From an uncultured cyanobacterium (lineage in GTDB: Bacteria; Cyanobacteriota; Cyanobacteriia; Phormidesmidales; Phormidesmidaceae), in the NCBI GenBank assembly GCA_963793265.1, contig CAWBZI010000001.1, forward strand, positions 192,001 to 256,000: a DNA stretch of 64,000 nt, in the 5' to 3' direction. Below the pieces are notes generated by a model, which worked only from the letters and a program-made list of their open reading frames with translations, did not search any database and was not told the DNA's origin. How positions within the stretch are numbered: the stretch's first letter is position 1; each line of letters begins with the position of its first letter. Position numbers and translations under genes: made by a program. This document shows, piece by piece, positions 14,230 through 64,000 of this stretch.

Positions 14230-16567
14230 TCACTTTAAATCGCCGAATTTAGGCGACCAAAAACCACCATCACGGCTTTGAAAAAACGCCACATCTTTGC
14301 ATTTTCCCTTGCGATTTTCCAGTAGCGAGCAGCGCAGCATAACCTTATCAACGCCTTCTTTTTGGTAGGCATGACGGATGAGTAAGGCCCCACAGATTCG
14401 GGCAAGGATGGTCGGTGAACGCTTTTGGATCGACCGGGCGCTGGGCATAGGGCAGCTCGTATCCTTTCTTCGCCGGATTCCAAAACATGACGGTATCGCA
14501 GCTAGACGATTCGCATTTTAAAAAGTGGTTTGCCTTTAGTTTTTTAGAGCGCGATGGAATTTTGCTCATGACTTGAGCGCATTTTGGGCATTTGGTTTTG
14601 CTTTTTTGGATCTGAGACTTTTCGGTCTGGGGCTTGTTTGCTTGGGGCTTTCTACGAGATTGTTTGCGCAGCGGCTTGTTTGATTTTGCTGTTGGGCTAG
14701 CTGTTGAAATAACTTTGCGACGGGTAGGCGCTGAAGTCTCTTTTGCGACAAGTGCTTTGGCTGGCGGTTGACTGACGTAGGTATCGGCAGCGTGCTGTAA
14801 GTCTCGCATGACGCCTGCGGAGAGCTTGGTCTTAGCTTGAGCGATCGCAGGTGCAAAGTAGTCTTTATGCCAGTCGGTCAAATACGTTTGCCAGTCTTGT
14901 TTACCAGCAGCGATCGCATCCAATTCATTCTCCATCTGCGCCGTAAAATCAGGCTCAATCAAATCAGGTAATAGCTTCTCCAAAGCTGCATCTAGCGACA
15001 GCCCTAGTTCAGTCGGCTGAAGCTTCCCTTTTACAAGGGTTGCATACGTTCTTGTCCGCAGCGTTTTAATCGTCGGCGCATACGTACTCGGACGCCCAAT
15101 GCCTTTGCGCTCCATCAGCTGCACTAGCTTAGGCTCGGTATATCTTGGTGGCGGTTGAGTCTGCTTCTGGTCAGCCTGCGCTTTTTCTAGTGTCACAGCC
15201 TGCCCTTCGTTTAACGTTGGTAGCTGCGAGTCGGCGCTTAAGTTATTCCAGTACTGGGTGTAGCCTGCGAACTCAACCACCTGCCCTCTCGCCTCCCAAT
15301 AAGCCTCTCCCGATTGGGTCACAATTCGCGTTTTACGCAGTTGAGCCGGACGACACTGAGAGGCTACAGCGCGATTCCAAATTAGCTCGTAGAGGTTAGC
15401 GGCATCGGTAGAGAGTGCGTTTTTGAGCTGCTGTGGAGTGGCGGTAACTTCAGTCGGACGGATAGCTTCGTGTGCGGCCTGCGCGTTTTTGGCTGAGCGA
15501 TGTTTGGCGGTTTGTTTAGGAACGTTGGCCGCATCGTGCTGGCTAAGGTAGTCTCTAACAGCGGCGCAGAAAGGGGCCGACAGTACAACAGAGTCGGTGC
15601 GCATGTAGGTGATGTGGCCCGCTTCGTAGAGTGACTGGGCCACTTTCATGGTTTGGTCAGGGGTGAAGCGGAGTTTGGAGCCTGCGGACTGCTGTAGCGT
15701 GGAGGTGATGAAGGGCGGCGGGGGCGATTGGCGGGTGAGTTTGCCTTGGATGGAGATGATTTTGTGGGGGGTGGTGCGGGCGATCGCAACCAGCCGATCC
15801 GCCTCAGCCTGCGTCGTCACCCGTTCAGACTCAGGCTCTTTTGATTTACCCGCTGACTTACCCTTCGAGCTAGCTTTATCAGCGCTATCTATCTCACTCT
15901 CCTCAGTCTTCTTAGGCCGACTAGCCGTAGGCTTCCGTCGATAAAAAGCTTTAAAGCCTTCCTGATAGCTCACCCATACGCTCCAATAGTCTTGTGGGGT
16001 AAACGCTTGAATCTCGCGCTCGCGCTGACACAGCAAATGGAGCGTCGCACTCTGCACACGCCCCATAGACTTCGCGCCGTTATTCAGCGGCCACACCACA
16101 TGGCGGCTACCTTTATAACCCACCAGCTTATCCAAACAATCACGCGCTCGACCCGCCGCAATTAAAGACTGATCGAGCACACGAGGATTTGCGACAGCGT
16201 TGCGAACCGCAGCGGGCGTAATTTCGCTGTATACAACGCGGTGAGGTTTCTTGAGGCGCAAAGCCTGCTGCAAATGCCAGCCGATCGTCTCGCCCTCGCG
16301 GTCGGGATCAGTCGCGATGTAAACCGTGTCCGCCTGCTTTACGGCCTGACGCAGGCCCGATATTGTCTTCTTGGCCCGCTCATCTCGCGGCGCATACTTG
16401 CAGTGAATCTGTCGGCCTTCCATATCGAAGCCTAAAGCATCTTCACCTTCATTAGTCAGCTCTCTGATATGGCCCATACTGGCTTTCACGATCCAACCAG
16501 GGCCTAGAATTTGGCTAAGCTTCTTCAGTTTTCCAGGGCTTTCGATCAGCAGCAGCTTAGCCATCAC
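14230..16567 (-). CDS. topA: Type IA DNA topoisomerase (secondary TopA-like), with 1-bp frameshift near the C-terminus
   Basis: TOPRIM LIESPGK, ASMGHI, ATDPDREGE, GRVQS, active-site ITYMRTDS, AHEAIRPT, GIGRPSTYA; Zn-ribbon CPKC; tail HPCP/ICGALL split between frames at 14397-14398. Confidence 0.9.
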
Positions 16568-16580
16568 GGTTGTCCTTTTT

Positions 16581-16625
16581 ATAGGCTTGCGTAGCGCAGC
16601 AAACAGCCACCCTGCGCAAGCCTAT
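16581..16625. promoter_or_regulatory. Inverted repeat just upstream of the topA start
   Basis: ATAGGCTTGCGTAG (16581-16594) / CTGCGCAAGCCTAT (16612-16625), 13 of 14 matching. Confidence 0.55.
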
Positions 16626-16628
16626 TTT

Positions 16629-16642
16629 AGTACAAACGATCT
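16629..16642. promoter_or_regulatory. Possible cyanobacterial LexA box
   Basis: AGTACAAACGATCT resembles AGTAC-N4-GTWCT with one mismatch; about 60 nt upstream of topA. Confidence 0.35.
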
Positions 16643-16696
16643 TACTTAGCGAATTAAGAAAATCTGAGTTCTCTTATGTTCTCTAGGCGTTGTTCT

Positions 16697-17203
16697 CTAT
16701 GCGTCTACTTTTCTAGCAATCTGACGAACTTCTTCTATGCTTGACTCCGAGCCTCTAACAACAACTCTATAAATATCAGTCGCGTTAGGATCTGTCTTAT
16801 CCCTTTGCTTTTGGGGCTGAGAGGCAAGTGCTGCTTTACCGATGAACGCACCGAGCGTAGCACCGCCAAACGCCAAGCCGAGAATCAACAGGCGGTTGAA
16901 GTTGCTATTGGCATACATGCTGTCGTTCCAATAAACAAGAATTGGAACAATGATGACGCCCAGCAAGCTCCCGTAGAGGCCACCTAGCCAAAACCCAGCC
17001 GCACCGCCAGTAATCGTGCCCATCGCCTCTAGTCTGCTACGCAAGCTCGTTCTGTCATCGATAGCGACCTGCTCAATGGATGAACCTGCCGATTCGATGG
17101 CTTCCTTAACTTTTTGTGCAGACTGACGGTTGTTAAAGTTAGCAATAACCTCATCTTTAGAGCGGACAGATGGCTGATTGGGCCGTACTGATTGACTTGT
17201 CAT
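16697..17203 (-). CDS. Hypothetical membrane protein with two Gly-rich TM segments
   Basis: 168-aa ORF with ATG; GGAAGFWLGGLYGSLLG and FGGATLGAFIG glycine-zipper-like helices. Confidence 0.7.
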   Translation of the reverse strand: MTSQSVRPNQPSVRSKDEVIANFNNRQSAQKVKEAIESAGSSIEQVAIDDRTSLRSRLEAMGTITGGAAGFWLGGLYGSLLGVIIVPILVYWNDSMYANSNFNRLLILGLAFGGATLGAFIGKAALASQPQKQRDKTDPNATDIYRVVVRGSESSIEEVRQIARKVDA

Positions 17204-17374
17204 AAAATTGTTTTCCGTTGAAAGTAAGCAATGATTCTATGATGACGAGTCTGTTGTGGTGTTTTCTCTATAGCTTGATAGAGCCTATTAGTTCCGTGGA
17301 GAGAAAAAACACATGCTAGCTAGCTCAACAGCTCTGTCGGAAGATCGCTAGAAGATATCATCTTAAGCACGAGG

Positions 17375-17404
17375 GCGAGCCATCGGATACGTTTAATGGC
17401 TCGC
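17375..17404. terminator. Hairpin downstream of the 82-aa gene
   Basis: GCGAGCCAT / ATGGCTCGC 9-bp stem; no clear U-tract. Confidence 0.4.
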
Positions 17405-17417
17405 TATATGGCTAGCG

Positions 17418-17666
17418 CTACAGTCTGACGCGGCGGGTCAATACGACCATAACTTCATTGCGATCGCCCGTTGGCACAGGCTTACTCCAATCGTTAGGCT
17501 CGGCGTAGTTGAGCTTGAACAAGGTGCGAATGGTCGCTTGGACTGCATGAAGGGAGCCCCGTATGGTGTGGGTCACAATCTCGGGGCTATCGTCTGAGGG
17601 AAATGAGGAATTGCCGACAGGAGGAACGGTGAACGCAGAGGCGTCCGGGCGAGCTGAAGTAAGCAT
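17418..17666 (-). CDS. Small conserved-type cyanobacterial hypothetical protein
   Basis: 82 aa, AAAGGA RBS upstream; pattern VTHTIRGS..AVQATIRTL..LNYAEPNDWS.P..TG..EVM.VL.R recalled from a widespread unnamed cyanobacterial family. Confidence 0.75.
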   Translation of the reverse strand: MLTSARPDASAFTVPPVGNSSFPSDDSPEIVTHTIRGSLHAVQATIRTLFKLNYAEPNDWSKPVPTGDRNEVMVVLTRRVRL

Positions 17667-17675
17667 AACGTTGAA

Positions 17676-17890
17676 TTTCCTTTGTTTTTGTAGGAAACCA
17701 GAACCCCACTAAACCAAGCCACCCCGCGAAAATGTAGTGCAAATCGGGGTGGCTAGAGTAAAGTGACTCTAGCCGCCGGGACTGCCGATTAGTCCGGGGG
17801 GTTAGCTATCGGTAGGTGTTGACGCACCTATCGATAGTGCTGAGCGAAATCGAGTTCTGGCAAGAACGACTGTGATAGGCATCACAGCTT
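17676..17890. ncRNA. Putative structured cis-regulatory or antisense RNA (seven clustered hairpins)
   Basis: Stems at 17676-17697, 17717-17754, 17748-17777, 17779-17795, 17806-17837, 17854-17867, 17870-17887 in a non-coding gap. Confidence 0.6.
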
Positions 17891-18035
17891 AGAACTGACG
17901 ATAATCTGATTCTTTGCTGCCGTCAAGTGGAAACGTATTTTTTCCGAGACGCCTCGGCGATTAACCCAAGTGCAAAGTCGAAAGTGTCTCATTATTTTCA
18001 AACCGCTTACTATGCTCAACCGTCGCTCTGATCTT

Positions 18036-18272
18036 TTAAGCGGCTGAATCTGCATACTGATAGACCGGAACTTCTATAAATTGCTGAGGCTCTGAGTCAT
18101 CTAGGATAAACGATTGCAATTTCTCTACTGTATCTAGCGAAAAGAGCTGTTCGCCTGTCTCTTCGTTTACTCTTGCTGGCACTCCTTTAATTACGATAAT
18201 TTTGCCGTCTATCTCCAACGTGTAAGTGACCAGTTTTTCTACCAAAGGTTCCTGCCAATTGTTATTTGCCAT
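18036..18272 (-). CDS. YgiT/MqsA-type antitoxin-like protein (Cys-less variant)
   Basis: VTYTLEIDGKIIVIKGVPARVNEETGEQLFSLDTV matches the YgiT-type 'VPA..C..CGE..F' pattern without the Cys residues; overlaps the upstream DUF4258 gene. Confidence 0.8.
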   Translation of the reverse strand: MANNNWQEPLVEKLVTYTLEIDGKIIVIKGVPARVNEETGEQLFSLDTVEKLQSFILDDSEPQQFIEVPVYQYADSAA

Positions 18273-18588
18273 TTTCAGTTTGTCTCCTCTCAGTAAAGCT
18301 ATTTGTCCAGATCTGCGGATCGGGTTCGTATAAAGTAATGACTTTGATTGACGGCCTAGATGGATAGGAGCATTGAATATGGATAGGACGCATATCCCTT
18401 GTAAAGCCGAATACTAAGCAGCTTGGCCCATATTTGTCATTTGGGTATTTTTCGATGATCTGACCGCTAGCGATCGCCTCTTTGATCTCCTGCACTCTGA
18501 TTTTTCGGATACCTGATTGATCAATAGCATGTTTAGAAAGCTCAACTTGATTTCTTTCGACTTTTTCGCGAATTTCATCAATCATCAA
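18262..18588 (-). CDS. DUF4258 family putative toxin
   Basis: SKHAIDQS..R.I...EI, IIEKYPNDKYGPSCLVFG, RPIHIQCS, VITLYEPDP. Confidence 0.85.
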   Translation of the reverse strand: MMIDEIREKVERNQVELSKHAIDQSGIRKIRVQEIKEAIASGQIIEKYPNDKYGPSCLVFGFTRDMRPIHIQCSYPSRPSIKVITLYEPDPQIWTNSFTERRQTENGK

Positions 18589-20129
18589 CCTAGTCGCTCT
18601 ATCAAATGGTCGCCTACGCGCATAGCGTTAGCCATGATGGTGAGAGAAGGGTTAACGGCGGCGCTAGAAGGGAAGAAGCTGCCGTCTACAACATAGAGGT
18701 TGTCTATATCGTGGGTTTTGCAGTGGGTGTCTAGTACGGAGGTAGCTGGATCGGTGCCGAAGCGACAGGTGCCGACCTGATGGGCGATCGCACCAATCGG
18801 CAAAATCTTACTAAAATACCAGGACACCGGCAGCACGCTACCTTCATTGTCCACGTCCTGAACGACCTTAATCCACCGCTTAATCAGCCGCTTAAACGCC
18901 TTCATATTATTGGGCTCATACTTCAAAGTAATCTGCCCATCTTTTACCATCACCCGGTTCTCAGCATCCGGGGCATCCTCACCCGTGAGCCACCAGTCCA
19001 CCGTCCGCTTCGCCGCCACCCGCAGCGCCCAGGTCGGCGCAATCTTCGGCACATCTAGCGCCAGCATTCGATGGTTCACCTTGCCGAGTAGCTGAACGTG
19101 GCCCATCGGATAGTCAAAGCCAGGCTCGCCCCAATAGTAATCGTTAATCGCCAAAGTCTTTTGGAACACGCTGTCATTTTCTTTCAGAGAAAGTCCAACA
19201 ATCGCTGCTGCCAAATGCTTCATAAAATTGCGGCCCACCTGATCCGAACTGTTGGCAAGTCCATTCGGATGCTGTTCATTAGCAGACTTTAGTAGCAGCG
19301 CCGCAGAATTTACCGCACCACAGGCAACAACAACAATATCGCCCGAGAAAGTCTGCGTTTCGCCATTAATTTCAGCTTCTACGCCCGTAATCTCTTTCCC
19401 CGACTCGCTCGTATGCAGCTTGTTTACCTTCGCCTCAGTAATCAGCCGAACGTTGGCATTCCCCATCGTAGGCCGAATACAGTTCACATCCGCATCAGAT
19501 TTGGCATCAATAAAGCAGGGAAAGCCATCGCAGGTATTACAGCGAATGCACTCACTTAAAAAAGCATCTTTTTCATTGAGCTTCACCGACAGCGGCAGAT
19601 AAAAAGGATTAAGCCCTTTCTTTTGTAGCGCTTTATCCATCCAGGCAATTCGCGGCTCATGGCTCACAGGCGGATAGGCATAGTCAGCGCTGCGCGGCGG
19701 CTCAGTCGGGTCATCACCTTGTTTGCCGTGCACCTGATACAGTTTCTCAGCCTGTTCGTAGTAGGGCGCAAAGTCGTTATACTTCAGCGGCCAGGCGGGT
19801 GATATGCCTTCACTCAGCCTCACTTCGTCAAAGTCTTCTTCTCTTAAGCGAAACAGCGCACCGCCGTAGACTTTGGTATTGCCACCGACCCAATAGCCGA
19901 TGCCCGGATTAATATCGTTACCGTCTCTATCGGCCCACACCTCATTGGTTTGGTAGCGGCCATCTCGAAACACAGCGTCCGTGCTCCAGTTCGCTTTTTC
20001 TTTCGGTAAAAAGGAGCCGCGTTCTAGCACCAGCACTTTTTTACCGCTAGGCGCTAACCGATGGGCTAACGTACCGCCACCCGCGCCCGTGCCAATGATA
20101 ATCACGTCGTAATGTTCGGCTGCGGTCAT
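18585..20129 (-). CDS. GMC family oxidoreductase
   Basis: YDVIIIGTGAGGG, VGGNT, CIRCNTCDGFPC, HQVGTCRFG, NLYVVDGSFFPS..AVNPSLTIMANA. Confidence 0.95.
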   Translation of the reverse strand: MTAAEHYDVIIIGTGAGGGTLAHRLAPSGKKVLVLERGSFLPKEKANWSTDAVFRDGRYQTNEVWADRDGNDINPGIGYWVGGNTKVYGGALFRLREEDFDEVRLSEGISPAWPLKYNDFAPYYEQAEKLYQVHGKQGDDPTEPPRSADYAYPPVSHEPRIAWMDKALQKKGLNPFYLPLSVKLNEKDAFLSECIRCNTCDGFPCFIDAKSDADVNCIRPTMGNANVRLITEAKVNKLHTSESGKEITGVEAEINGETQTFSGDIVVVACGAVNSAALLLKSANEQHPNGLANSSDQVGRNFMKHLAAAIVGLSLKENDSVFQKTLAINDYYWGEPGFDYPMGHVQLLGKVNHRMLALDVPKIAPTWALRVAAKRTVDWWLTGEDAPDAENRVMVKDGQITLKYEPNNMKAFKRLIKRWIKVVQDVDNEGSVLPVSWYFSKILPIGAIAHQVGTCRFGTDPATSVLDTHCKTHDIDNLYVVDGSFFPSSAAVNPSLTIMANAMRVGDHLIERLG

Positions 20130-20178
20130 AGCTTTAGTCCTAGAGAGTTGAGAACGAAGTCAGCAAAAAAGGGAGTGC

Positions 20179-21045
20179 TTAGATTCTTCTTTTATACGCT
20201 TTTAGTGTCAATGGGCCGAAGGTAATAAACAGTACCAGGCTCCAGGCTAGCGTAACTAATACTAATCTCATGGCAGGCTCACCGCTCGCCAAGGCTCGCA
20301 TTGCTTCAGAGATGGTGGAAACGGGGTTGAGGGTGACAAAGCCTAAGGCCCAGTCGGGAAAGCCTTCTTTGGGGACGTAGCCGACGCTCATGAAGGTGAA
20401 GGGCAAAATCCAGGGATTCATGATGGCGGAGATGGTTTCGGATGATTTTGCACCGACGGCGATGTAGAGGGCGACTAAGGCGATCGCTAATGTAAACACA
20501 GTCGGCAGCAGGAAAAAGCCAATCGCGCCCATCAGCCCACCGTAAAAGCGAAAGCCCACTAGATAGCCTGCCAAAACAATGCCGCTAATTTGAAAGAGCA
20601 CGCGCACGGCAGCAGCTAGGAGTCTTCCGCCCACTGCGGCGAGCCGGGCAATGGGCATGGCCCGCAGGCGCACGTCTCTACCGCTGCTGAGATCGTCGTA
20701 AAAAATGCTGCCAATATTAACGGTGGTAAAAATCAGCCCTTGAATGAGTGTGAACGGCAGTAAAAACTGGGCATAGCTGCTGTAGCTTTCGCCGGGCGCA
20801 ACGACTTTGGCAAAGCTGGCGGTAAATACCAGGAATAAGGACACCGGGAAGGCGGTAGACACGAGGATTTCGGCGGGGTTGCGAAAGTCTAGCAGGAGGT
20901 TGCGCCGGGCGATGGTAAGGATGTCGTTGAGCGATCGCCCCCATCCGCCCTCACGCCGCGCGGCTACCATCGCCGCAATCGAGTCTTGGTCAAGCTTTTC
21001 TGGTGTCATGGCGTCCGAGGGCATAGCGTCTAAGGTCATATTCAA
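20179..21045 (-). CDS. ABC-2 type transporter permease (DrrB/DrrC-like)
   Basis: Six TM segments, RLRAMPIAR, FMSVGYVP..FPDW..LNPVS. Confidence 0.88.
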   Translation of the reverse strand: MNMTLDAMPSDAMTPEKLDQDSIAAMVAARREGGWGRSLNDILTIARRNLLLDFRNPAEILVSTAFPVSLFLVFTASFAKVVAPGESYSSYAQFLLPFTLIQGLIFTTVNIGSIFYDDLSSGRDVRLRAMPIARLAAVGGRLLAAAVRVLFQISGIVLAGYLVGFRFYGGLMGAIGFFLLPTVFTLAIALVALYIAVGAKSSETISAIMNPWILPFTFMSVGYVPKEGFPDWALGFVTLNPVSTISEAMRALASGEPAMRLVLVTLAWSLVLFITFGPLTLKAYKRRI

Positions 21046-21884
21046 AGCTGCTTATAAAGTCGAACCGACCAGAGCCCTAAGCCTATCCATAGCGCCACGA
21101 GCCACAGAAAGCTAGCTACAAAAAGCTCACCGCTTGCCGTACTGCCATCGACTAAAGCCCGCAACGCATCGCAGGTAACGCTCACCGGCTGATAGCGCAC
21201 AATTGGCTGTAGCCAGCTTGGAAAATTTTCGGTCGGGCTAAAGCCATTGCTGAGCAGTAGCAGCGGCGTGTAAGGAATAATGGCGACTGAATTTACCAGC
21301 GATGGATTGCGAAGCTTGAGCGCAAGGACGCTGTAGCCGGTAATGCAAGTGGTGGTAAATAGCGTGACCAGAATGAAGTAAGCCAGGAAGGCGAGCGACC
21401 CGCCGTAGAAGCGAAAGCCTAGCAGACAGGCGACTGCGAGCAAAATCACGGTCGCCAGTAATGCTCTTACCATGTAGGCCAGCACCAGCCCAGCCACCAC
21501 GGCCACGCGCGAAATTGGCATGGCCCGGCAGCGTTCCATCATGCCGGTTTCAATGTCGGTAGCGAGCATTACCGCTGAGCCAAACCCAGCGAAAAATAGC
21601 GTCTGCAAGTTGATTACGGGCACTAAATACTGGATATAGACCACGCCTTGAGCAGCCATCAGCTTTTGGCCGACGATCCAAAAGCCCAAGAGGAAAACCA
21701 TGGGGAAGATAGCGATCGCAACGATCACAATCGGGTTCCGCTTCAGCCGAATTAAATTACGCCAGGTAATCAACAGGCTGTCATCAATCGCCCTGCGCCA
21801 TCCCGTCTCCTGACGCTGAGCGATCATCTGCTGAGCTAGCTCGGCCACATCGTAAGTAGAAGGCATAGAAAATAAAAGAGCCAT
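21042..21884 (-). CDS. ABC-2 type transporter permease (DrrB-like)
   Basis: ITWRNLIRLKRNP, DIETGMMERCRAMPISR, LSNGFSP..FPSWLQPIVRYQPVS; ATGA overlap with the next permease. Confidence 0.9.
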   Translation of the reverse strand: MALLFSMPSTYDVAELAQQMIAQRQETGWRRAIDDSLLITWRNLIRLKRNPIVIVAIAIFPMVFLLGFWIVGQKLMAAQGVVYIQYLVPVINLQTLFFAGFGSAVMLATDIETGMMERCRAMPISRVAVVAGLVLAYMVRALLATVILLAVACLLGFRFYGGSLAFLAYFILVTLFTTTCITGYSVLALKLRNPSLVNSVAIIPYTPLLLLSNGFSPTENFPSWLQPIVRYQPVSVTCDALRALVDGSTASGELFVASFLWLVALWIGLGLWSVRLYKQL

Positions 21885-22130
21885 GGAAAAAATAGGCCAT
21901 CCAGAGTGTAGGCCAAAAAACTATCGAAAATCCAGGTTCGATTGAGGGGCGATCACCTGCATTCGGGCTGCGATCGCTTGCATTCGTTGTTTGAGGTTGC
22001 GGGCGGGTAAGTTAATAGCACGCTGAGCAAACAATCAATCTTGATATCGGCCATCTCGATTGATATCAGGCGCGCCGTTAAAAGTTCTCAGCATTGGGTG
22101 CTTTTTGATGGATATTTCTGGACTATAGCT

Positions 22131-23096: not shown

Positions 23097-23126
23097 AGGT
23101 CGCTTGCTAATAAACACAGTCACACT

Positions 23127-27448: not shown

Positions 27449-27454
27449 AAGATT

Positions 27455-29668: not shown

Positions 29669-29697
29669 GTCTTTAAACAGTGGCAAACAGCAAATTT

Positions 29698-29713: not shown

Positions 29714-29747
29714 AAAGCCTCACATGCACACTCAATTATTATGTTTT

Positions 29748-29761
29748 GTAGCTTGCAATAC
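29748..29761. promoter_or_regulatory. Possible NtcA site (GTA-N8-TAC)
   Basis: GTAGCTTGCAATAC, about 100 nt upstream of the ATG at 29861; no ideal -10 at 22 nt. Confidence 0.35.
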
Positions 29762-29860
29762 GGTTTGTAAGCTTGTACAACTTTAGATAGATATTTTATA
29801 AAGCAGCTAAAAAGAAAAATCGCACAAGTACCGCAGCGGACTACCTACCGGGAATTCAAT

Positions 29861-31541: not shown

Positions 31542-31741
31542 CGTAACCTACCTGCTCCAGCATTATTCTTTCTACAGGGCGAGGCGGTTTTTGGCTAGCT
31601 AAACGAAAATACGTAAAAGCCGCTGTTCATTTTGTAGACAATCCTTCGGTCATAGCGCCGATTACTTTCCCTGATCAGGCTAGCTACGCTTGTTAAGGTT
31701 ACGGCCAGCACTACCGTTCGTTAGAAATCCAGGAAATTTGC

Positions 31742-32965
31742 ATGTCACGTTCGCTTCATCTTTGGTACCAGCAGCAGGCTGCTCGGCTTGCCTACCGCCA
31801 GGGACTTGCCCATGTTCGCCAGGCCGCTCACTCTGAAGCGATCGCAGCATTCACCGAAGCGATAGAAAAGGGATATCAAAAGTCGAACCAGGCGCTATTT
31901 GCCAGGGGTCTTAGCTATGCGCGGATGAGAGATGTAGAGGGCGCGATCGCAGACTTCTCAACCATTATTGACGAGGCTTCGCCAAGCAAAGGGCAGAAGC
32001 GAAATGCTGAGGCCGAGTTTTTACAGGCCCAGGCCCACCACCATCGGGGCCTGCTCAAGCAACAATTAGGTAATGAGGCGGGCGCGTTAGCTGACTGGTC
32101 TGAGGCGATCGCTCACTGGCCCAACTACCCCGAGCCTCACTATCAAAGGGCGCTAGTTTTCTTAGGCCAAGGACACCACAAGCAGGCACAGATTGACTTG
32201 GACGCGGCGCTTGAAGGCAATCCGACCATGGCACTTGCCTATGTGCAAAGAGGAAATTTGCGCCATCAGCTAGGCGATATTCCGGGTGCGGTTTCTGATT
32301 GGGAGCTGGCCGTGTGTAACGATCTTGGCTTAGAGAGCGTCAAACAAAAGCTGGCAAGCATACATCAAGCCGCCTACGATGCTAAGCTCAGCGCCGTCTT
32401 AAAAGCGCCGCTGGCAGCTAAAGGTCTTACCGCAGAAGTGACTCACAGCGGATCTCAGCTCGACATTCACGTTCACCGGCAGCTAGGCACAGGCGTAAAC
32501 TACTACACGCTGCCCGATCTCATTCGCGAGCATCTGGTACCGCTACATTTAGCCGACGTTAAAAAGTTTCAGCTCATCGGTCATCTAGCGGAAATTAATC
32601 GACCTGAGTGGAGCCAGTCATACGATTTGTACAAAGGTCAACCCTGCCCGCCTAGCAACTGGCAAGCGGCTTTTTCTACCCTGGTCGTGTTTCCTCCCTT
32701 CGGTATTCCTGCCTTCATCCAAGCGGCTCAGGTCAAAAAGCTCTACAGCCGCGGTCAGTATGTAGAGGCATTGAGTGCATCTAAGTCTGTGAAGGGGCTG
32801 TGCGTAGCAGGCAGTGTCACGCTAGGATTTTGTACGCTGCTGCCATTAGGATACGTAGCCTACGATTCGATGCAAGCAGAGCCAACATTTCGAGTCGTCG
32901 CCGAGCGCCTAGAACAACCCCACCGCCCCTACCAACAAATCCGCCGAAACAACCCCGACCTGTAG
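31742..32965 (+). CDS. TPR-repeat protein with C-terminal CD225/dispanin (IFITM-like) membrane domain
   Basis: Several TPR units (ALFARGLSY..GAIADFS; AYVQRGNLRHQLGD..GAVSDW); C-term PPSNWQAAFSTLVVFPPFGIPAFIQAAQVKKLYSRGQYVEALSASKSVK. Confidence 0.8.
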   Translation: MSRSLHLWYQQQAARLAYRQGLAHVRQAAHSEAIAAFTEAIEKGYQKSNQALFARGLSYARMRDVEGAIADFSTIIDEASPSKGQKRNAEAEFLQAQAHHHRGLLKQQLGNEAGALADWSEAIAHWPNYPEPHYQRALVFLGQGHHKQAQIDLDAALEGNPTMALAYVQRGNLRHQLGDIPGAVSDWELAVCNDLGLESVKQKLASIHQAAYDAKLSAVLKAPLAAKGLTAEVTHSGSQLDIHVHRQLGTGVNYYTLPDLIREHLVPLHLADVKKFQLIGHLAEINRPEWSQSYDLYKGQPCPPSNWQAAFSTLVVFPPFGIPAFIQAAQVKKLYSRGQYVEALSASKSVKGLCVAGSVTLGFCTLLPLGYVAYDSMQAEPTFRVVAERLEQPHRPYQQIRRNNPDL

Positions 32966-32988
32966 GGGCGTAAGGTCTTACGCCCTCC
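32962..32988 (+). repeat. REP-like palindromic element (GTAG class)
   Basis: GTAGGGGCGTAAG-GT-CTTACGCCCTCC; its TAG is the stop codon of the TPR gene. Confidence 0.75.
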
Positions 32989-33033
32989 GGCTGAAATCCC
33001 GCCCCTTACCAAAACCACCCTCTCACCAATCTC

Positions 33034-33957
33034 TCACATCGAAAGCGACACTTCCTTAGGCAACGCCAACAAAACATCCAAAAAAGCAAAAACAGCGCGC
33101 GGCAGCACGGCATTCTCCAAAATGGCAACACCCACAACACGCTCCAAAGGCTCAGGCAAAGACTTTACCCGCACGCCCGCAGGCACCGGCTCTGCCTCCA
33201 AACGCGCCAAAACAGCCGCACCCAACCCTTTCTCTATCATATTCATCAGCGTAGAATCTTCTCTCACTTCGTAGTCGGCAGGCAGGTGATAGCCAAAGTG
33301 CGCGAGGTGCGCTCCGACCAAATCATTGTGTTGAGTAGAGCGTAAGTTCACAATCCGCGAATAGCTCACTAGCTGCTCCCAAGTCAAAGAGTTCTGTTCT
33401 TTTTCATCCACCGCTTTCTCATCAGGCGGCAGCAGTGCAACAAACTCTTCTCTAAAAATCTCCCAAGATTGAAACTCTGACGGCGTAGGCAGTAGCGTAA
33501 AGCCTAAATCGGCCTGCCCTTCTCTCAACGACTTCTCTACATCAGCATAGCGGTCATGCTCCGAGATCTCGACGGTCAGCCGGGGATGAACCCGCCGAAA
33601 CTGAGAAATAACGCCCGGCAAAATATGTGTTGCGACCGTACGAATAGCCGCTACGCGAACCCGGCCTGTCTGCAAATCTTTCGCCTGGCTAGCCGTCTGT
33701 TGAATATCGCTCAGACCGTTCAGCACCGTCTTTGCCTGCTGATAAATTTGAGTGCCGATGGGCGTAAGCACTGCGCCAACACGGTTTCTTAATAAGAGGA
33801 CAACGCCCAAATCTGACTCTAGCGTGGCGATCGCATGACTCACCGTAGACTGCGCTAACCCTAGCTGAAGCGCCGCTGCACTAAATCCGCCCTGCTCAGC
33901 GACAGCGACTAGAGCCACAAGCTGCGAAATTTTAAGCTGTTTGCCAGTCTTAACCAT
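33034..33957 (-). CDS. LysR family transcriptional regulator
   Basis: HTH GGFSAAALQLGLAQSTVSHAIATLESDLG..LL.R; substrate-binding domain; divergent from the NhaC-family gene. Confidence 0.96.
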   Translation of the reverse strand: MVKTGKQLKISQLVALVAVAEQGGFSAAALQLGLAQSTVSHAIATLESDLGVVLLLRNRVGAVLTPIGTQIYQQAKTVLNGLSDIQQTASQAKDLQTGRVRVAAIRTVATHILPGVISQFRRVHPRLTVEISEHDRYADVEKSLREGQADLGFTLLPTPSEFQSWEIFREEFVALLPPDEKAVDEKEQNSLTWEQLVSYSRIVNLRSTQHNDLVGAHLAHFGYHLPADYEVREDSTLMNMIEKGLGAAVLARLEAEPVPAGVRVKSLPEPLERVVGVAILENAVLPRAVFAFLDVLLALPKEVSLSM

Positions 33958-34032
33958 CGGTCTTAGCCGTTTTTAAACAGGCGATCGCACGTATTTAAAC
34001 ATCAGTAGACTCGAAATAGAGCCCATAGCACC

Positions 34033-34047
34033 ATCGACGGCATCGAT
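34033..34047. promoter_or_regulatory. LysR-type T-N11-A operator
   Basis: Palindrome ATCGA-CGGCA-TCGAT in the divergent lysR/nhaC gap. Confidence 0.6.
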
Positions 34048-34133
34048 AATAGCTATCACAACATCACCTTGTCGAGACTAAGCTCGCTCCTTACAGTGAA
34101 GGAATTCGATCCTGCGCTCGCGCCTTGCACAGT

Positions 34134-35534
34134 ATGCCAAACAACAACCTCGATCTGATTGTAGTTTTGTTATTCTCGTTTGGTCTATTAGTAACGAGCG
34201 CGCTCACAGGCACTTTCATTGCCTATCCCCTATTGGTTGCACTGATACTGTTTATGGCCGTTTTAGTGCGGCGTGGGTTTGCAGTGCGATCGCTTCTCAA
34301 AATGGGGTTCATCGGTGCCCAACAGGCGCTACCTGTTGTAAAAGTGCTCTTACTAATTGGCATAGTCACGGCAATTTGGATGGCCTCGGGCACGGTACCA
34401 GCACTGGTTTACTACGGCACAGGCTTAATTTCGCCTCGTTTTTTCATTTTATGGGCCTTTGTTCTCACAGGTCTGCTTTCCACGCTCATAGGCACTTCCT
34501 TTGGCTCAGTGGCCACGCTTGGCATTGCGCTGATGGTGATGGCTCGCAGTAGCGGTGTGGATGCTAATCCTGTGGCGGGGGCAATTATTGCGGGGGCCTT
34601 CGTAGGCGATCGCTGCTCCCCGATGTCTTCTAGTGCGCACTTAGTCGCTAGCATCACCCAAACATCTCTCTACGGCAATTTGCGAAATATGATTCGCAGT
34701 AGCCTGTGGCCGATTGCGCTCTCTTTAGGCTTCTACGCAGTTCTCTCTCTTTTTCATCCTGCGCAGCTCGCCGCCAATCCTATAATGGCTGAGCTGCCCA
34801 AAGCCTTCGATCTTTCACCTGTAGTTCTACTTCCGGCGGGTGCTGTTTTACTTTTGGCCGTTTTAAGGGTAGATGTGAAGCTGGCTATGCTGGTGAGTAT
34901 TGGGCTGGGGAGTGCGATCGCCTATCACTTTCAGCACTATTCTTTCTTCAGCATTATTCAGTTCGCGCTGCTTGGCTTCCAGCTCGATAGTTCACCTGCG
35001 CTTCAAAGCATTCTCTTAGGCGGCGGGCTGATCCCTATGGCAAAAGCCACGCTCGTTGTCTTTATCTCTACCGCCTTTGCAGGCATATTTTCAGGCAGTC
35101 GCACCCTCAGCTTCATCGACCGCTGGTTTAGTCACATCCATACTCAGCGCCAGCTTAGCCGGGCCACTGTCTTTGTCTCTATTCTCTCTAATCTCTTTGG
35201 CTGCACGCAAACGATTGCCATTTTGCTTGCCGGGCAAATCATGCAGCCTCACTACAAAACGCTTTGGCCTAATCGAGATAGAGCGGCTCATAACCAACAG
35301 CTAGCGCTCGATTTAGAAGACACTGCCGTCATGATCGCGCCCCTTATTCCATGGAATATTGCCGGGCTCATTCCAGCCACCGTTCTTGCCGTTGGCCCAG
35401 GATTTATCCCCTACGCGGCCTATCTCTGGCTACTGCCACTGTTCACGTTTTTTAGAAACAGTACGCTTCAGCCTTCGCCAAAATCTCCGTCTTCAGGTCG
35501 CTCGCTGGCGTCTAAAAGAACTGTCTTAAAGTAG
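34134..35534 (+). CDS. Na+/H+ antiporter NhaC family transporter
   Basis: WMASGTVPALVYYG, IGTSFGS, GAIIAGAFVGDRCSPMSSSA, LEDT..APLIPWN; ATG 34134. Confidence 0.88.
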   Translation: MPNNNLDLIVVLLFSFGLLVTSALTGTFIAYPLLVALILFMAVLVRRGFAVRSLLKMGFIGAQQALPVVKVLLLIGIVTAIWMASGTVPALVYYGTGLISPRFFILWAFVLTGLLSTLIGTSFGSVATLGIALMVMARSSGVDANPVAGAIIAGAFVGDRCSPMSSSAHLVASITQTSLYGNLRNMIRSSLWPIALSLGFYAVLSLFHPAQLAANPIMAELPKAFDLSPVVLLPAGAVLLLAVLRVDVKLAMLVSIGLGSAIAYHFQHYSFFSIIQFALLGFQLDSSPALQSILLGGGLIPMAKATLVVFISTAFAGIFSGSRTLSFIDRWFSHIHTQRQLSRATVFVSILSNLFGCTQTIAILLAGQIMQPHYKTLWPNRDRAAHNQQLALDLEDTAVMIAPLIPWNIAGLIPATVLAVGPGFIPYAAYLWLLPLFTFFRNSTLQPSPKSPSSGRSLASKRTVLK

Positions 35535-35606
35535 AGGTGATCGCCTCGAAGTTAGGGTACGGTTAAGGTTAGAAAACTTCAATCACACAGCCAAAACACT
35601 ACTCAC

Positions 35607-36362
35607 ATGACTGACACTCAAGACAAAATGGCCGCTTCTTTTAGTCAGGCTTACCAGACCGCCGAGCAGTTAGGCGGCCTAGTGTCGGCCGTTGGCACCC
35701 AAATCTTCAACAAAGTATCGAGCGCTACTGTTGATACAACAACTCGCGTTAGCGAAGCTGCTGCCGAATCTGCGCATGTAGCGGTAGAGCAGGCAACTGA
35801 GAACGTGGGAAATACCCTGCATCCTATTGCTGAAAATCCGGCCATAGATTATGTCGCCAAGGTTCCAGGATTAGGCTGGCTCACCAGTGCATTAGGAAAG
35901 GTTGACCAGAAAAAGGTGAAAGCAGACGTTGAGAAGCTGAAAGCCAAGCATCCTAATGAAGCGGCTGAGGATTTGGCGCATCGAATTATTGTTGATACCA
36001 CGATTAGAGCAGGCGGGATTGGCCTGGCGACGAATATTATTCCGCCGATTGCTCTGGGGTTGTTTGCGGTGGATTTGGCCGCGATCGCTGCTCTCCAATC
36101 TGAAATGCTCTACCGCATCGCCGCCATCTACGACTTCAAGCCGACAGATCCTGCACGCAAAGGCGAAGCCCTAACCGTATTTGCCCTTTCACTAGGCACC
36201 TCTACTGCCGTAAAAACAGGACTCAGCGTCGTTGAGCTAATCCCCCTTGTCGGTGCCGCCGTAGGTGCTAGCAGCAACGCAGGCATTCTCTACAGCTTCG
36301 GCATCGCCGCCTCCGAATTCTACAAAAGAAAACGCGCTAAAATCAAAACACCGGCCTATTAA
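35607..36362 (+). CDS. EcsC/DUF697-like membrane-associated hypothetical protein
   Basis: GGIGLATNIIPP..AVDLAAIAALQSEMLYRIAAIY, ELIPLVGAAVGASSNA. Confidence 0.7.
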   Translation: MTDTQDKMAASFSQAYQTAEQLGGLVSAVGTQIFNKVSSATVDTTTRVSEAAAESAHVAVEQATENVGNTLHPIAENPAIDYVAKVPGLGWLTSALGKVDQKKVKADVEKLKAKHPNEAAEDLAHRIIVDTTIRAGGIGLATNIIPPIALGLFAVDLAAIAALQSEMLYRIAAIYDFKPTDPARKGEALTVFALSLGTSTAVKTGLSVVELIPLVGAAVGASSNAGILYSFGIAASEFYKRKRAKIKTPAY

Positions 36363-36402
36363 TCCAAACCCCCATCAACATCCAGCCGCCAACCGATTCA
36401 CC

Positions 36403-36429
36403 GTAGGGGCGTAAGGCATTACGCTCTCC
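36403..36429 (+). repeat. REP-like palindromic element, second copy
   Basis: GTAGGGGCGTAAGGCATTACGCTCTCC, near-identical to 32962-32988. Confidence 0.7.
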
Positions 36430-36503
36430 AGCCTCCACCCCAAAAAACCCTTTTTCCGTTTATAAGAATTAAATTAGAAATCCAGAAATATCAGCAAAAA
36501 TGG

Positions 36504-36532
36504 TTGCATTATCTATTCCCTATCGCTATGAT
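36504..36532 (+). promoter_or_regulatory. Sigma70-type promoter
   Basis: TTGCAT-N17-TATGAT. Confidence 0.65.
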
Positions 36533-36702
36533 TGCTAGCATTGGTAGACCGCCAATCACTACACACAGCCCTCTAACAGCGTTAGAGATAAGCGATGATT
36601 CACTCACTCCCCCCCATTCTGTCCGCCCATTAGAGATGGCAGCAAAGACAGTCAAACCCCTCTAGCGGCAAGCATTTCAAGAAATATTCGGGAGGCTCCA
36701 CG

Positions 36703-36756
36703 ATGGCTATAATTACTACTTACCTATTCACTGCACCGATTAAAGTACGGCGATAG
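36703..36756 (+). CDS. Putative leader peptide MAIITTYLFTAPIKVRR (17 aa)
   Basis: GGGAGG at 36690-36695, ATG 36703, TAG 36754-36756; lies between the promoter and the ABC exporter gene. Confidence 0.6.
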   Translation: MAIITTYLFTAPIKVRR

Positions 36757-37089
36757 ATTCACGCGTCTTTTCTTAATAGGTTTCAGCAAAATCTCAAGAC
36801 ACTTTTCATCCTCAGCTTTCACAGTAGCTAGCGTGTAAGCAAACATTTTGCATTGCTAAAGTTCTAGTATCAGAGCGCAGCAATCCACTATGGCTGCCTG
36901 GGCATAGTCGCCTATTACGCTGCATCAGTACAGGTGTAAAAGCGTCTTACAAAACATTTTCAGCAGTAGAATGCTGAAATAATTTGCTGTTCTCCTTTAT
37001 CTGTTACTTTACAACAGATAAAGAAGAGTGCCTTTTGACTGGCCTATTAAATTTTCCTATCCATTCAATACCCTCATATCTTTAGACCC

Positions 37090-38899
37090 ATGCAAAAGTT
37101 TTTAACTATCTTGGGCTACTATCAGCGCTATTGGAGAATCACCATCTTCAGTGCCGCGATGATGAGCCTTTTTGAAGTAATAGACCTCTTCGTACCCTAC
37201 GCGACTGGGCAAATTCTCAATCTAATCTCACAGCAAACTATAGACGATAGGCTTCAACAGACCATCAACTACATTGCAGGGGTCTTCAACCAGCCAGTTA
37301 CTCAAGAATTCTCGCTGATTGTGTTAGTGGTTCTAATCGGTATTGTCACCGTGGGCCGCGCCCCGATTCAGCCCTGGCTAGGAGGATGGTTTGGCTGGGA
37401 CACCGCTTTTCGCGCGCGCCGGGAGAACGCAGAGAAAGGCGTTGAAGAAGATTCTGACACTACCGCTGGAATTTTATGACGAAAACAACCCTGGTCGGAT
37501 TGCGGCAAGGGTCGCGAAAGGGCTTTCAAACTTTACCTGGACATATCCAAGCATCACCGAGCAGCTCATTCCTAAAACGGTTCGTATTCTTGGCATCTTT
37601 GTTGTCATTAGCCTAATCGACTGGCGAATTGCAGCAATTGTGCTGGTGTCGGTCAGCGGCATTTTGCTGCAAAGCTTTTTAGGCTTAAAAGAGCTTTCAG
37701 CGCGAGAAGAAAAGCTCGATACCTACATCGAAAACACAGATAGCCGTAATTCAGAGATTATCTCTAATATCAAAACGGTGAAAGCCTTTGGCAACGAACT
37801 CACTGAGCTAAAGCGCCAAACGCAAAGGCTAGATCGCGAATTCAAGGTGCTCGACTATCGTATTCACAAGGGCTACACGATACTCAGCACGTACCAAAGA
37901 ACTTTTGTACAAAGCTGTATGTTTGTAGTTCTTGCTTCTACGCTATGGCTCACGGTTAACGGCAATATTTCTATCGGTCACTTCATCACCACGCTTACAG
38001 TAGCGAGTATGGCCTATGCCGAGGTCAATCCCATTTGCGATTTGGCTGAAATGTTTGCCAGGCGATACGCGCCGATGTCCAGGTTCCAAGAGTTCACGGC
38101 CCTACCGCCAGGCAGAGATGCAGGCGCGCTGCTGCCAGATACGCCAACCTACGAGTTCACAGGCAAAGTTCATTTTCACGGGCTTACCTTTGGCTACAAC
38201 CCTGCTGATCCAGTGCTAAAAAACATTGAGCTGCTGATTGAGCCCTATCAGACGGTGGCCTTAGTCGGGCGGTCTGGTTCAGGAAAATCTACGTTAGTGA
38301 AGCTGTTGTTGCGCTATTTTGAGCCTGATGACGGCGCGCTACTGATAGACGGCAAAGATATTCGACAACTTGACGTTACGGGCTATCGCAAGCGGCTCGC
38401 TATCGTGCATCAAGAGGTTGATATCTTTAACGGCACGCTAATGGATAATCTGTTGTACGGAAATCCTGATGCGAGCTTTGAAGAGATTGAAACAGCCTGC
38501 AAAATTGCGCAGGCCCACGATTTTATTCAACAGCTTCCAAAGGGCTATTTCACGACAGTAGGAGAGCGTGGCGTACGGCTTTCGGGTGGTCAGCGGCAGC
38601 GGATTGGGATTGCGAGAGCTTTAGTCGTAAACCCTGATGTGCTGGTGTTTGATGAGGCGACCTCTAGCCTGGATTATGAGTCTGAACGGGCGATTCAGGT
38701 GGCGATGCGATCGCTCTTTGGCACCCGAACACTCATCATCATCGCTCACCGCCTCAGCACCGTTCGCGATGCTGATAAGATTGTTGTTCTCGATCAGGGC
38801 AGCATTAGCCAAGTGGGTGCTCACGACGAGCTGATCGAAGAAGGTGGGCTTTATCGGAGGCTACATGCGCTGCAAGAAAGTGGCGAGCTGATTGATTAG
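37090..38899 (+). CDS. ABC exporter, fused TMD+NBD (MsbA/Sav1866-like), with a 1-bp frameshift at 37426-37427
   Basis: ORFs 37090-37479 and 37391-38899 join as RARRE/TQRKALKKILTLPLEFYD; GRSGSGKST, LSGGQRQR, FDEATSSLD, IAHRLSTV. Confidence 0.9.
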
Positions 38900-63999: not shown

Positions 64000-64000
64000 C

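Follow-up and report, generated by a model that had tools for sequence, protein, structure and literature searches.

Synonymous GC skew forms a sawtooth between HIP1 sites in the genome of a Phormidesmidaceae cyanobacterium

Introduction

Three decades after it became known, the palindromic octamer HIP1 (GCGATCGC) still has a function that the literature calls unresolved (Elhai 2015, PMC4390886; Xu 2018; 2026 GBE paper). Here we analyse base composition around HIP1 in a stretch of 64,000 nucleotides (nt) from an uncultured cyanobacterium of the Phormidesmidaceae, and in the genome from which it comes. This stretch, which we call the window, covers positions 192001-256000 of contig C1 in G000, a 5.68-Mb assembly of 7 contigs. 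A preliminary description of the window, made from its letters alone, had pointed to local switches from G-rich to C-rich DNA at HIP1 sites, whatever the direction of the gene, and had proposed that HIP1 marks the start of a polar, strand-asymmetric mutational or repair process that leaves a footprint in GC skew.

Several described systems share features with this pattern. In section 3.4 of Elhai 2015 (PMC4390886), HIP1 is proposed as a nick signal of mismatch repair with a reach of ~1 kb. That model concerns the same hyper-abundant octamer, and the reach that it postulates is similar to the ~700-nt long component found here; it differs in dealing with the creation of HIP1 and in predicting no polar compositional footprint. 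Published work on HIP1 describes extensions of only 1-3 nt, for example GGCGATCGCC, and in another cyanobacterium Kamoku and Nielsen report that HIP1 stimulates recombination in a methylation-dependent manner.

The closest described geometry is that of human meiotic double-strand-break hotspots. In its account of these hotspots, Hinch et al. 2023 (PMC7615360) reports a mirror-image strand asymmetry over 1-2 kb, made up of C>N and A>N changes on the single-stranded strand, with C>G and A>G prominent. There, as around HIP1, the asymmetry is mirrored, and C and A are lost from the strand whose 3' end lies at the site; the hotspot signal consists of de novo mutations at a raised rate in a eukaryote, whereas around HIP1 a bacterium shows an equilibrium composition that comes with no detectable increase in substitution rate and is better fitted by a fixation-type bias. 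Chi is likewise an octamer tied to recombination, G-rich on the strand with its 3' end at the site, and it is reported to lie within GT-rich islands. RecA is reported to prefer TGG repeats that resemble Chi (PMC3763553). HIP1, by contrast, is palindromic and has no orientation; a search for RecC gave no match in 5 genomes, and TGG-type words are no commoner than base content predicts.

Two further comparisons concern skew and bias as such. Replication-associated GC skew is also a strand asymmetry of G and C seen best at synonymous sites, with a much weaker T/A component. It spans two replichores, whereas the asymmetry described here acts over 0.06-1 kb around ~6,900 anchors, and the sign change at HIP1 (+ to -) is that of a replication terminus, not of an origin. 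The local amplitude at HIP1 (0.4-0.6) is far above the replication skews known from other bacteria. GC-biased gene conversion resembles the present case as a fixation-type bias that acts through mismatch correction in heteroduplex DNA, is visible at neutral sites and does not raise the rate; it differs in favouring G and C alike on both strands, where around HIP1 G goes up and C goes down on one defined strand.

We were not able to find a description of compositional skew around HIP1 in a full-text literature search, most subscription journals being outside its coverage. For local GC skew around palindromes, no such description of HIP1 was among the matches listed (the best 10 of 1,183). The word 'skew' is absent from Elhai 2015 (PMC4390886) and from Xu 2018, and in the 2026 GBE paper it refers to sampling only.

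Results

A sawtooth of synonymous GC skew between HIP1 sites

The G000 assembly holds 6,888 copies of HIP1 (1.21 per kb), as against 307 copies of the reversed word. Gene calling was crude (open reading frames with 80 codons or more were ranked on codon usage and then resolved by a greedy rule) and gave 4,690 genes covering 85-88% of each contig; 6,332 HIP1 copies lie inside called genes and 540 between them. Raw counts that use no annotation already show the switch. Around 6,886 usable sites, GC skew of the + strand over all positions is +0.014 at -300 to -200, +0.04 at -150 to -100, +0.07 at -80 to -60, +0.16 at -30 to -20 and +0.36 at -5 to 0, and the downstream side is the mirror image. 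AT skew is opposite in sign and three to four times weaker.

The effect is far larger at silent positions. At fourfold and third positions upstream of HIP1, skew of the + strand is +0.40 at 15-30 nt, +0.31 at 30-50, +0.24 at 50-70, +0.19 at 70-100, +0.11 at 100-150 and +0.065 at 150-200 nt. We denote by S the strand that enters a HIP1 site in the 5'->3' direction, which is the + strand to the left of the site and the - strand to its right. On S, fourfold skew over 6,887 sites is +0.367 (standard error 0.003) at 6-70 nt. Close to the site, skew reaches ~+0.47 at fourfold positions, +0.13-0.15 at intergenic positions and only +0.04 to +0.07 at codon positions 1 and 2; at 150-300 nt the fourfold value has dropped to +0.07. 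Coding and template S differ hardly at all (0.411 vs 0.416 at 16-30 nt, 0.342 vs 0.349 at 31-50, 0.144 vs 0.135 at 101-150), and the 5' and 3' amplitudes agree within 0.02 in every distance bin.

Intergenic positions respond weakly whether the HIP1 site itself is intergenic or genic. Since fourfold positions in the genes that adjoin the 540 intergenic sites are skewed all the same (+0.24 at 31-70 nt, +0.13 at 71-150 nt), the weak response is a property of the positions and not of the sites. The response thus appears to scale with the freedom of each class of position to change, as would a weak directional pressure acting against purifying selection.

Toward HIP1, G increases and C decreases on S, and A and T stay nearly steady, in the same way for coding and template S. 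Fourfold composition of S is A.183, C.259, G.312, T.246 at 151-200 nt and A.175, C.173, G.416, T.236 at 16-30 nt; G+C stays nearly constant, at 0.57 to 0.59, while skew changes strongly. Twofold sites, at which only transitions are silent, shift as much as fourfold sites: at 6-30 nt, ln(C/T) changes by -0.69 and +0.40 in the two orientations, and ln(G/A) by +0.52 and -0.48. A model with one parameter, in which G gains +s, C gains -s and A and T are neutral (s = 0.47), reproduces the four frequencies within 0.012, and for the twofold shifts it predicts 0.47 against the 0.45 and 0.40 used.

Between neighbouring sites, skew runs from ~-0.4 to ~+0.4 as a sawtooth, for gaps from 300 nt to more than 3 kb, because each site pushes in opposite ways on its two sides. 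On isolated flanks, with over 2.5 kb to the next HIP1 (n=591), the footprint is longer and stronger than in averages over all sites, with skews of +0.61 at ~10 nt, +0.31 at ~125, +0.15 at 350-500 and +0.07 at ~900 nt. It is well fitted by 0.48 exp(-d/61) + 0.27 exp(-d/697) (chi2 of 10.8 on 9 degrees of freedom), as compared with 78 on 11 for a single exponential, and the summed footprints of neighbouring sites account for the lower averages over all sites. Synonymous GC skew in this genome is thus a genome-wide sawtooth between HIP1 sites, and the process behind it is anchored at HIP1, polar, symmetric between the two strands and acting at the DNA level, with G favoured and C disfavoured on S at all positions under weak constraint, over two length scales and with no detectable effect on the rate.

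All 7 contigs agree on the footprint, which is positive at 86% of the 5,790 scorable sites. As a check on recently acquired genes, we found a mild gradient with codon typicality (+0.39 in the lowest decile vs +0.50 in the top quartile). There is no sign of active and inactive classes of sites; the strengths of left and right flanks correlate at r = -0.23, and this correlation is negative because of background gene skew. A replichore-scale skew was not seen in G000, where skews in 100-kb segments are irregular (-0.10 to +0.10) with no two-domain pattern on any contig. One stretch of positive 100-kb skew lies at the start of contig C4.

HIP1 sites in the window

The window holds 73 HIP1 sites. 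Seven of them had been singled out earlier, the first three below by hand counts and the other four by eye. Each is listed with the gene that contains it and with G/C in its 40-nt flanks, upstream and then downstream:

15780..15787, in the minus-strand topoisomerase gene 14348-16567; 19/3 and 8/18
24061..24068, in the plus-strand TPS/CHAT-domain gene 23127-26663; 23/2 and 5/16, with TGGTGGTGGTGG directly upstream
34914..34921, in the plus-strand Na+/H+ antiporter-family gene 34125-35534; 18/4 and 3/11
18784..18791, in the minus-strand gene 18585-20129; 16/10 and 6/12
20931..20938, in the minus-strand gene 20179-21045; 18/6 and 8/22
36081..36088, in the plus-strand gene 35607-36362; 15/9 and 6/16
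38707..38714, in the plus-strand ABC-transporter gene 37391-38899; 15/7 and 5/17
1..64000, the whole window; fourfold skew on S of +0.516, +0.249, +0.112 and +0.087 in the bins 6-30, 31-70, 71-150 and 151-300 nt

Our recount reproduced the hand counts at 15780, 24061 and 34914 exactly, together with the strands given for the three genes, and G exceeded C upstream and C exceeded G downstream at all four sites picked by eye. The preliminary description had warned that its sites were hand-picked. This caveat can be removed: over all 73 sites, G exceeds C in the upstream flank at 52 (sign test p = 4e-4) and C exceeds G downstream at 53 (p = 1e-4), and 39 sites show the switch on both sides, as against 12.4 +- 3.2 at random positions (2000 draws, maximum 24). 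It had placed the effect at 15740-38760. The effect is present there (19 of 31 HIP1 sites have the two-sided switch), and the limits are arbitrary since the whole window and the whole genome show it. Two further points that it had raised are settled by the genome-wide profiles, namely independence from gene direction, with equal fourfold skew on both coding strands, and a contribution of amino-acid content, with codon positions 1 and 2 shifting by only ~0.04-0.07.

The window also contains genes unrelated to the skew. The large TPS-secretion/CHAT-domain gene 23127-26663 and two RTX-repeat (HemolysinCabind) genes at 40038-42557 and 54911-56197 adjoin a long run of glycosyltransferase and polysaccharide-export genes.

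Specificity of the footprint

As controls we used the 142 palindromic octamers, HIP1 included, with at least 30 copies in the genome. At fourfold sites 6-70 nt away, the 141 others average -0.012 +- 0.048, compared with +0.367 for HIP1, and over all positions at 10-60 nt they average -0.004 +- 0.019, compared with 0.145. Of the 298 copies of the runner-up palindrome, ATCGCGAT (+0.199), 160 overlap a HIP1 or lie directly next to one. The 441 octamers made of the same letters average -0.007 +- 0.047 at fourfold sites 6-70 nt away, and their top four correspond to HIP1 read with a shift of two bases. Skew is flat around copies of GATC and CGATCG that are not part of a HIP1 and lie 300 nt or more from the nearest one. 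Among the 24 one-mismatch variants of HIP1, a near-full footprint was found only at GTGATCGC (n=178) and GCGATCAC (n=208). The preliminary description would have been overturned by a synonymous skew that is flat, or equal to that of control octamers; a skew of +0.37 against ~0 at controls does not overturn it.

Several other explanations were tried and rejected. An extended hairpin or cruciform is not supported, as mirror complementarity equals that of a shuffled-partner control for d >= 4 (z of -1.6 to +0.7) and is depleted at d of 1-3 (z = -15). A discrete G-rich motif was likewise rejected: base content explains 82% of the 5-mer enrichment on S, only sub-words of HIP1 stand out, and Chi-like or TGG-repeat words leave residuals of |z| <= 2.2 beyond base content. 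Because no single word drives the effect, the TGGTGGTGGTGG tract at 24061 is best seen as an extreme of a trend that acts base by base. A replichore effect was rejected as well, there being no regular global skew to which the footprint could be related.

Within 100 nt of HIP1, its sub-words CGATC, GATCG, ATCGC and GCGAT are more frequent than base content would give (z = 20-30), which suggests that partial or decayed copies of HIP1 cluster near intact ones. In G000, 18% of the gaps between HIP1 sites are shorter than 200 nt.

The footprint follows the site between congeners

Twelve congeners (G001-G012) have 72-76% DNA identity to G000. With 20 kb examined in each, nine show the footprint at z = 3.0-6.0, and the other three (G003, G004, G008) had at most 4 sites. 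These genomes are so diverged, and yet show the footprint each, that it must therefore be maintained independently in each species.

For a site-by-site comparison, 820 kb of the congener G007 were aligned with G000, giving 398 kb of alignment at 73.5% identity. G007 has a fourfold footprint of its own (868 sites; +0.379, +0.244, +0.159 and +0.079 with increasing distance). The alignment contains 296 HIP1 sites common to both genomes, 188 found in G000 only and 172 in G007 only. Shared sites have fourfold skews at 6-70 nt of +0.42 and +0.39 in the two genomes, and sites that are not shared with the congener have a footprint as strong as that of conserved ones. Where the orthologous octamer has three or more mismatches (n=205), skew is +0.303 in the genome that has HIP1 and +0.019 +- 0.020 in its counterpart. 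The corresponding values are +0.366 and +0.105 for two mismatches (n=83), and +0.343 and +0.338 for one (n=72). The first half of the alignment gave the same dependence on the site. Judged from these aligned sequences, the switch is present in the same genes only where HIP1 is, or apparently was until recently, and this therefore rules out protein or gene context as its cause.

Other lineages and HIP1 variants

To look beyond the genus, we collected named relatives through the MnmE gene of the window, the nearest being Phormidesmis and metagenome-assembled genomes (MAGs) of Phormidesmidales with up to 83% identity; all named loci thus surround one gene. The Phormidesmis-like group was defined by MnmE identity of at least 74%, a limit set after the scores of single loci had been seen. 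Fourfold skews on S, in the bins 6-30, 31-70, 71-150 and 151-300 nt and starting from the nearest, were as follows:

Same-genus pool, 177 sites: +0.42, +0.21, +0.16, +0.10
Phormidesmis-like named loci, 199 sites: +0.41, +0.19, +0.12, +0.07
Nostocales-like loci (45), 734 sites: +0.22, +0.19, +0.04, +0.05
Other Leptolyngbya-like loci, 347 sites: +0.13, +0.03, +0.03
G018: +0.17, +0.04
G019, 56 sites and noisy: +0.22, +0.10
G020: +0.10, +0.02
G016, 64 sites: +0.02, +0.00
G017, 1,040 sites in 400 kb: +0.007, +0.004, +0.002, +0.003

The same pipeline gave +0.47 on a 400-kb piece of G000 as against zero in G017. We also surveyed one genome per family (20 genomes, 7-20 kb each); the stretches sampled from G058 and G030 contain no HIP1. 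Third-position skew at 6-70 nt was positive in all 13 genomes of the same class with at least 9 sites (+0.07 to +0.33, highest in G084 at +0.33 and G040 at +0.27) and close to zero, from -0.02 to +0.07, in five genomes with high GC that belong to another class. As kin are not independent, these counts should be read as a description of the sample and not as tests. The footprint is widespread among the HIP1-rich cyanobacteria sampled, strongest in this clade, of weak to moderate amplitude in the majority of families and absent in some. It is not a general property of HIP1: G016 and G017, two HIP1-rich genomes of other families, show none.

Lineages also differ in how the octamer varies. Elhai 2015 (PMC4390886), where it treats HIP1 variants, describes one-off forms as deviating mostly at positions 1 and 8 and CGATCGC 7-mers as favoured too. 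Variants at position 1 or 8 make up 59-83% of one-offs in G016, G017, G018, G020 and the Nostocales loci, and 19% in G000 and 15% in the Phormidesmis-like loci; judging by these proportions, HIP1 is read as a strict octamer in this clade. The variant seen most often here, with 766 copies or 20% of one-offs, is the C>T product at the second position; it is not elevated in other lineages and looks like the result of deamination of a methylated C.

Two stretches free of HIP1 were seen in passing. G058 has 8,832 copies genome-wide and none in the first 20 kb of its chromosome (L190, C1:1-20000), and a 21-kb locus of a Pegethrix bostrychoides MAG (L065) has none, compared with ~1.5 per kb in neighbouring lineages. 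These may be foreign islands, or lineages without HIP1.

Substitution rate near and far from HIP1

A footprint in composition can come from a bias in mutation or from a bias in fixation, and the two make different predictions for the rate of substitution. Fourfold p-distance between G000 and G007 is 0.607-0.615 across all six bins of distance to HIP1. At the 296 shared sites, the near/far ratio of general time-reversible (GTR) distances is 1.00 (0.83-1.20) at 6-30 nt, 1.05 (95% interval 0.96-1.16) at 6-70 nt and 1.07 (0.98-1.17) at 71-150 nt. The intervals are from bootstraps with equal sample sizes, oriented on S, for one species pair and alignable genes. The test operates near saturation (p of ~0.60 against a ceiling of ~0.74), and its ratio lies between the classes of model even after the alignment was doubled.

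Models of added mutation predict ratios of 1.12 for extra C>G alone, 1.18 for extra C>N, 1.17 for C>G + A>G and 1.19 for C>G + C>A + A>G. For an additive model that matches the twofold shifts the expected ratio is 1.24, and composition is then off by as much as 0.032. Under a zero-sum redistribution from one strand to the other it is 0.93 (error 0.016), and under a fixation bias with s = 0.47 it is 0.95 (error 0.012). Two simple forms were rejected outright: pure C>T deamination predicts T far too high (0.35 on S vs 0.19 observed) and a ratio of 1.28, and a pure C>G change cannot move twofold sites, which shift as much as fourfold sites. Taken together, the data argue against simple added damage and against a strong gradient of repair efficiency, and lean towards a bias of the fixation or strand-choice type.

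Repair genes and methyltransferases

Profile searches for repair genes covered five genomes (G000, G016, G017, G018, G020). Pfam MutH and Vsr were each found in 0 of 5, with positive controls matched, an unrelated nickase being outside the reach of such a search. RecC was found in 0 of 5 (the search did not include AddAB), and ExoI in 0 of 5. The MutL C-terminal domain, ExoVII and RecJ were each found in 5 of 5. The presence of RecJ, ExoVII and MutL and the absence of ExoI are compatible with excision from HIP1 as proposed below, and do not discriminate.

Methylation was considered as well. Section 2.5.2 of Elhai 2015 (PMC4390886) mentions a few HIP1-rich strains without a CGATCG methyltransferase. 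G000 has 7 C5-methyltransferase genes, four of which were searched across 27 genomes (L206 and L208 were left out). A dcm-type enzyme, G000:C4:630912-632333 (L203 1354-2778), has matches of 48-68% identity in 13 of the 26 other genomes, and matches G084 at 39%. A footprint of at least +0.10 is found in 13 of the 14 genomes with a match, G016 being the exception, and in 4 of the 12 without (G037, G065, G018, G019), in a comparison that mixes footprint measures and is confounded by phylogeny. Apart from G016, all genomes that are clearly null lack a match. This widely conserved, orphan-looking enzyme is a lead as a candidate determinant of amplitude. Its matches carry an in-frame stop in G001, G007 and G025 and are split in two in G022 and G040; all five genomes have the footprint.

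The other genes searched had few relatives. L204 matched nothing, L205 had matches only at 37-40% in 2 genomes, and another gene only at 36-46%. L204 and L205 are two C5-methyltransferase genes 10 kb apart (G000:C6:499621-514138), with no close homologue even in congeners, and probably belong to strain-specific restriction-modification systems.

Discussion

Our results show that HIP1 sites in this genome stand at the centre of a mirror-image compositional footprint. Of the proposal in the preliminary description, that HIP1 marks a polar, strand-asymmetric process which leaves a skew footprint, this part is borne out; that the process is mutational, or consists of a nick with resection or resynthesis, is not established, with a rate ratio of 1.05 (0.96-1.16). 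The data partly show that the pressure behaves like a weak fixation or strand-choice bias, whose log weights on S at 6-70 nt are about +0.47 (G) and -0.47 (C), and not like added mutagenesis.

We propose that HIP1 anchors a polar, strand-specific transaction on DNA, most likely biased gene conversion in which the strand leaving HIP1 is excised and recopied from S, and we regard this as somewhat better than an even bet. A nick would be made at HIP1, and the strand that leaves the site in the 5'->3' direction would be excised and recopied from S. The setting could be mismatch correction of heteroduplex, between copies of the chromosome or after transformation, or possibly after replication. A mismatch recognised by MutS would be resolved to the base on S, and one that is not recognised would segregate at random. 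In E. coli, MutS recognises G.T and G.G well and does not recognise C.C. If the same specificity holds here, mismatches with G on S (G.T, G.G, G.A) would be recognised best, those with C on S (C.C, C.T, C.A) worst, and those with A or T in between. This order would yield the preference G > A = T > C on S with the substitution rate unchanged, and the net effect would be a strand-specific biased gene conversion, anchored at HIP1 and of lineage-dependent strength.

Several points weigh against this proposal. The ratio predicted for a fixation-type bias, 0.95, falls just below the observed interval of 0.957-1.162, so that its fit is not clean either, and some added mutagenesis may be mixed in. The response of intergenic positions is a third of that at fourfold ones, which we tentatively attribute to constraint. 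None of MutH, Vsr, MutL, ExoVII, ExoI, RecJ and RecC separates strong from null genomes among the five searched. The dcm-type methyltransferase follows amplitude only loosely, as G016 has the gene and no footprint, and G037 and G065 show the opposite. Octamers close in sequence to HIP1 carry the near footprint, so that, as far as such alignments can tell, dependence on the site by itself would fix no causal direction; the full near footprint kept at one-mismatch loci fits a lag after loss of the site, and also a skew that precedes the site. Finally, the polarity assigned to the excised strand rests on E. coli MutS specificities, and the nick itself is putative.

Added mutagenesis is one alternative: if 5'->3' resection from a break or nick at HIP1 leaves S single-stranded, either as a 3' tail or as the template in a gap, C (and A) on S may be damaged and miscopied. 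The geometry and sign match human meiotic hotspots, with C>N and A>N changes on the single-stranded strand (PMC7615360), and C>G alone or C>G + C>A + A>G gives roughly the right fourfold composition with ratios of 1.12-1.19, the lowest of which lies inside the interval. However, pure C>T is wrong on both T and rate, pure C>G leaves twofold sites unmoved, the additive model matched to twofold sites predicts 1.24 and deviates in composition by up to 0.032, and at 6-30 nt, where skew peaks, the observed ratio is 1.00 (0.83-1.20); we therefore find this explanation unlikely. The same rate data bear on a literal form of Elhai's model, in which mismatch repair of the nascent strand depends on distance from HIP1 and the mutations that survive near the site come mostly from errors on S. 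The 700-nt component matches the postulated reach of ~1 kb (the long decay is 697 nt, and isolated flanks still have +0.07 at ~900 nt), and generic asymmetries of polymerase error would give the right sign. If the distance dependence saturates, such a gradient should make divergence near the site clearly lower (a ratio of ~0.7 for an asymmetry of the required size, an estimate and not a computed value), whereas we observed a ratio of 1.05 and no trend in p-distance, which stays at 0.607-0.615; homologues of MutH, whose analogue the model needs, and of Vsr were found in 0 of 5 genomes. We give this form of the model very little credence. A third possibility is selection on the flanks themselves, with a G-rich, C-poor S being a better substrate for recombination (RecA loading or pairing, DNA free of structure when single-stranded) and HIP1 a Chi-like site. 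It would draw on the fit of the fixation-type model to composition and rate, with s of ~0.5 being of the order of selection on codon usage, on the reported preference of RecA for Chi-resembling TGG repeats (PMC3763553) and on the Chi-like behaviour of HIP1 reported in transformation by Kamoku and Nielsen. Yet there is no signal at the level of words (82% of 5-mer enrichment is base content, TGG and Chi-like words have |z| <= 2.2), selection would have to act on tens of thousands of single synonymous sites out to ~1 kb, and intergenic DNA, though free to follow such selection, shows the weaker response. RecC is missing from all 5 genomes searched, and two HIP1-dense genomes lack any footprint. 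Selection of this kind seems to us distinctly unlikely.

Causation might also run the other way, with switches from G to C arising by other means and HIP1 created or kept preferentially at them. HIP1 itself is G-rich and then C-rich (GCGA, then TCGC), one-mismatch octamers already have the full near footprint (+0.338 vs +0.343), and unshared sites have footprints equal in strength to those of conserved ones. Against this, there is no known independent cause of thousands of such switches, skew is +0.019 +- 0.020 where the orthologous octamer has three or more mismatches, every sawtooth ends at HIP1 sites, footprints are longer and stronger on isolated flanks as expected if sites are sources, and G017 has 2.6 HIP1 per kb without switches. 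We consider reverse causation very improbable. An effect at the level of coding or mRNA, or an artefact of site picking, gene calling or amino-acid content, might be suspected since the pattern is strongest inside genes and a pattern in the mRNA sense would look strand-independent. This is refuted by the controls: raw counts free of annotation show the switch, fourfold sites show it most strongly and codon positions 1 and 2 least, 5' and 3' amplitudes agree within 0.02, intergenic DNA is skewed too (+0.15), the same pipeline yields 0.00 in G017, the same genes lose the footprint without the site, and mirror complementarity is absent (z within +-1.6 for d >= 4).

Independently of mechanism, the footprint is evidence from within the genome of a directional, strand-specific process in vivo, and thus a handle on the function of HIP1. 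It comes with measurable properties: a polarity, tracts of ~60 and ~700 nt, a base preference of G > A = T > C on S with s of ~0.5, and an amplitude that depends on the lineage. In genomes of this kind, synonymous codon choice and local GC skew depend largely on the distance to HIP1, which will confound analyses of codon usage, of selection and of replication origins.

Biased conversion from S, our preferred reading, can be carried further, although we do so tentatively and would not bet on it. HIP1 may be the entry site, by nick or by strand choice, of a polar mismatch-correction or recombination system whose excision runs outward on the departing strand, and whose conversion bias has turned a large part of the silent sites into the sawtooth that replaces the usual replication skew in these genomes. 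If this is true, the amplitude of the footprint, which varies from 0 to 0.5 between lineages, would be a readable measure of the activity of that system, and comparing amplitude with gene content over hundreds of genomes would identify the enzyme that reads HIP1.

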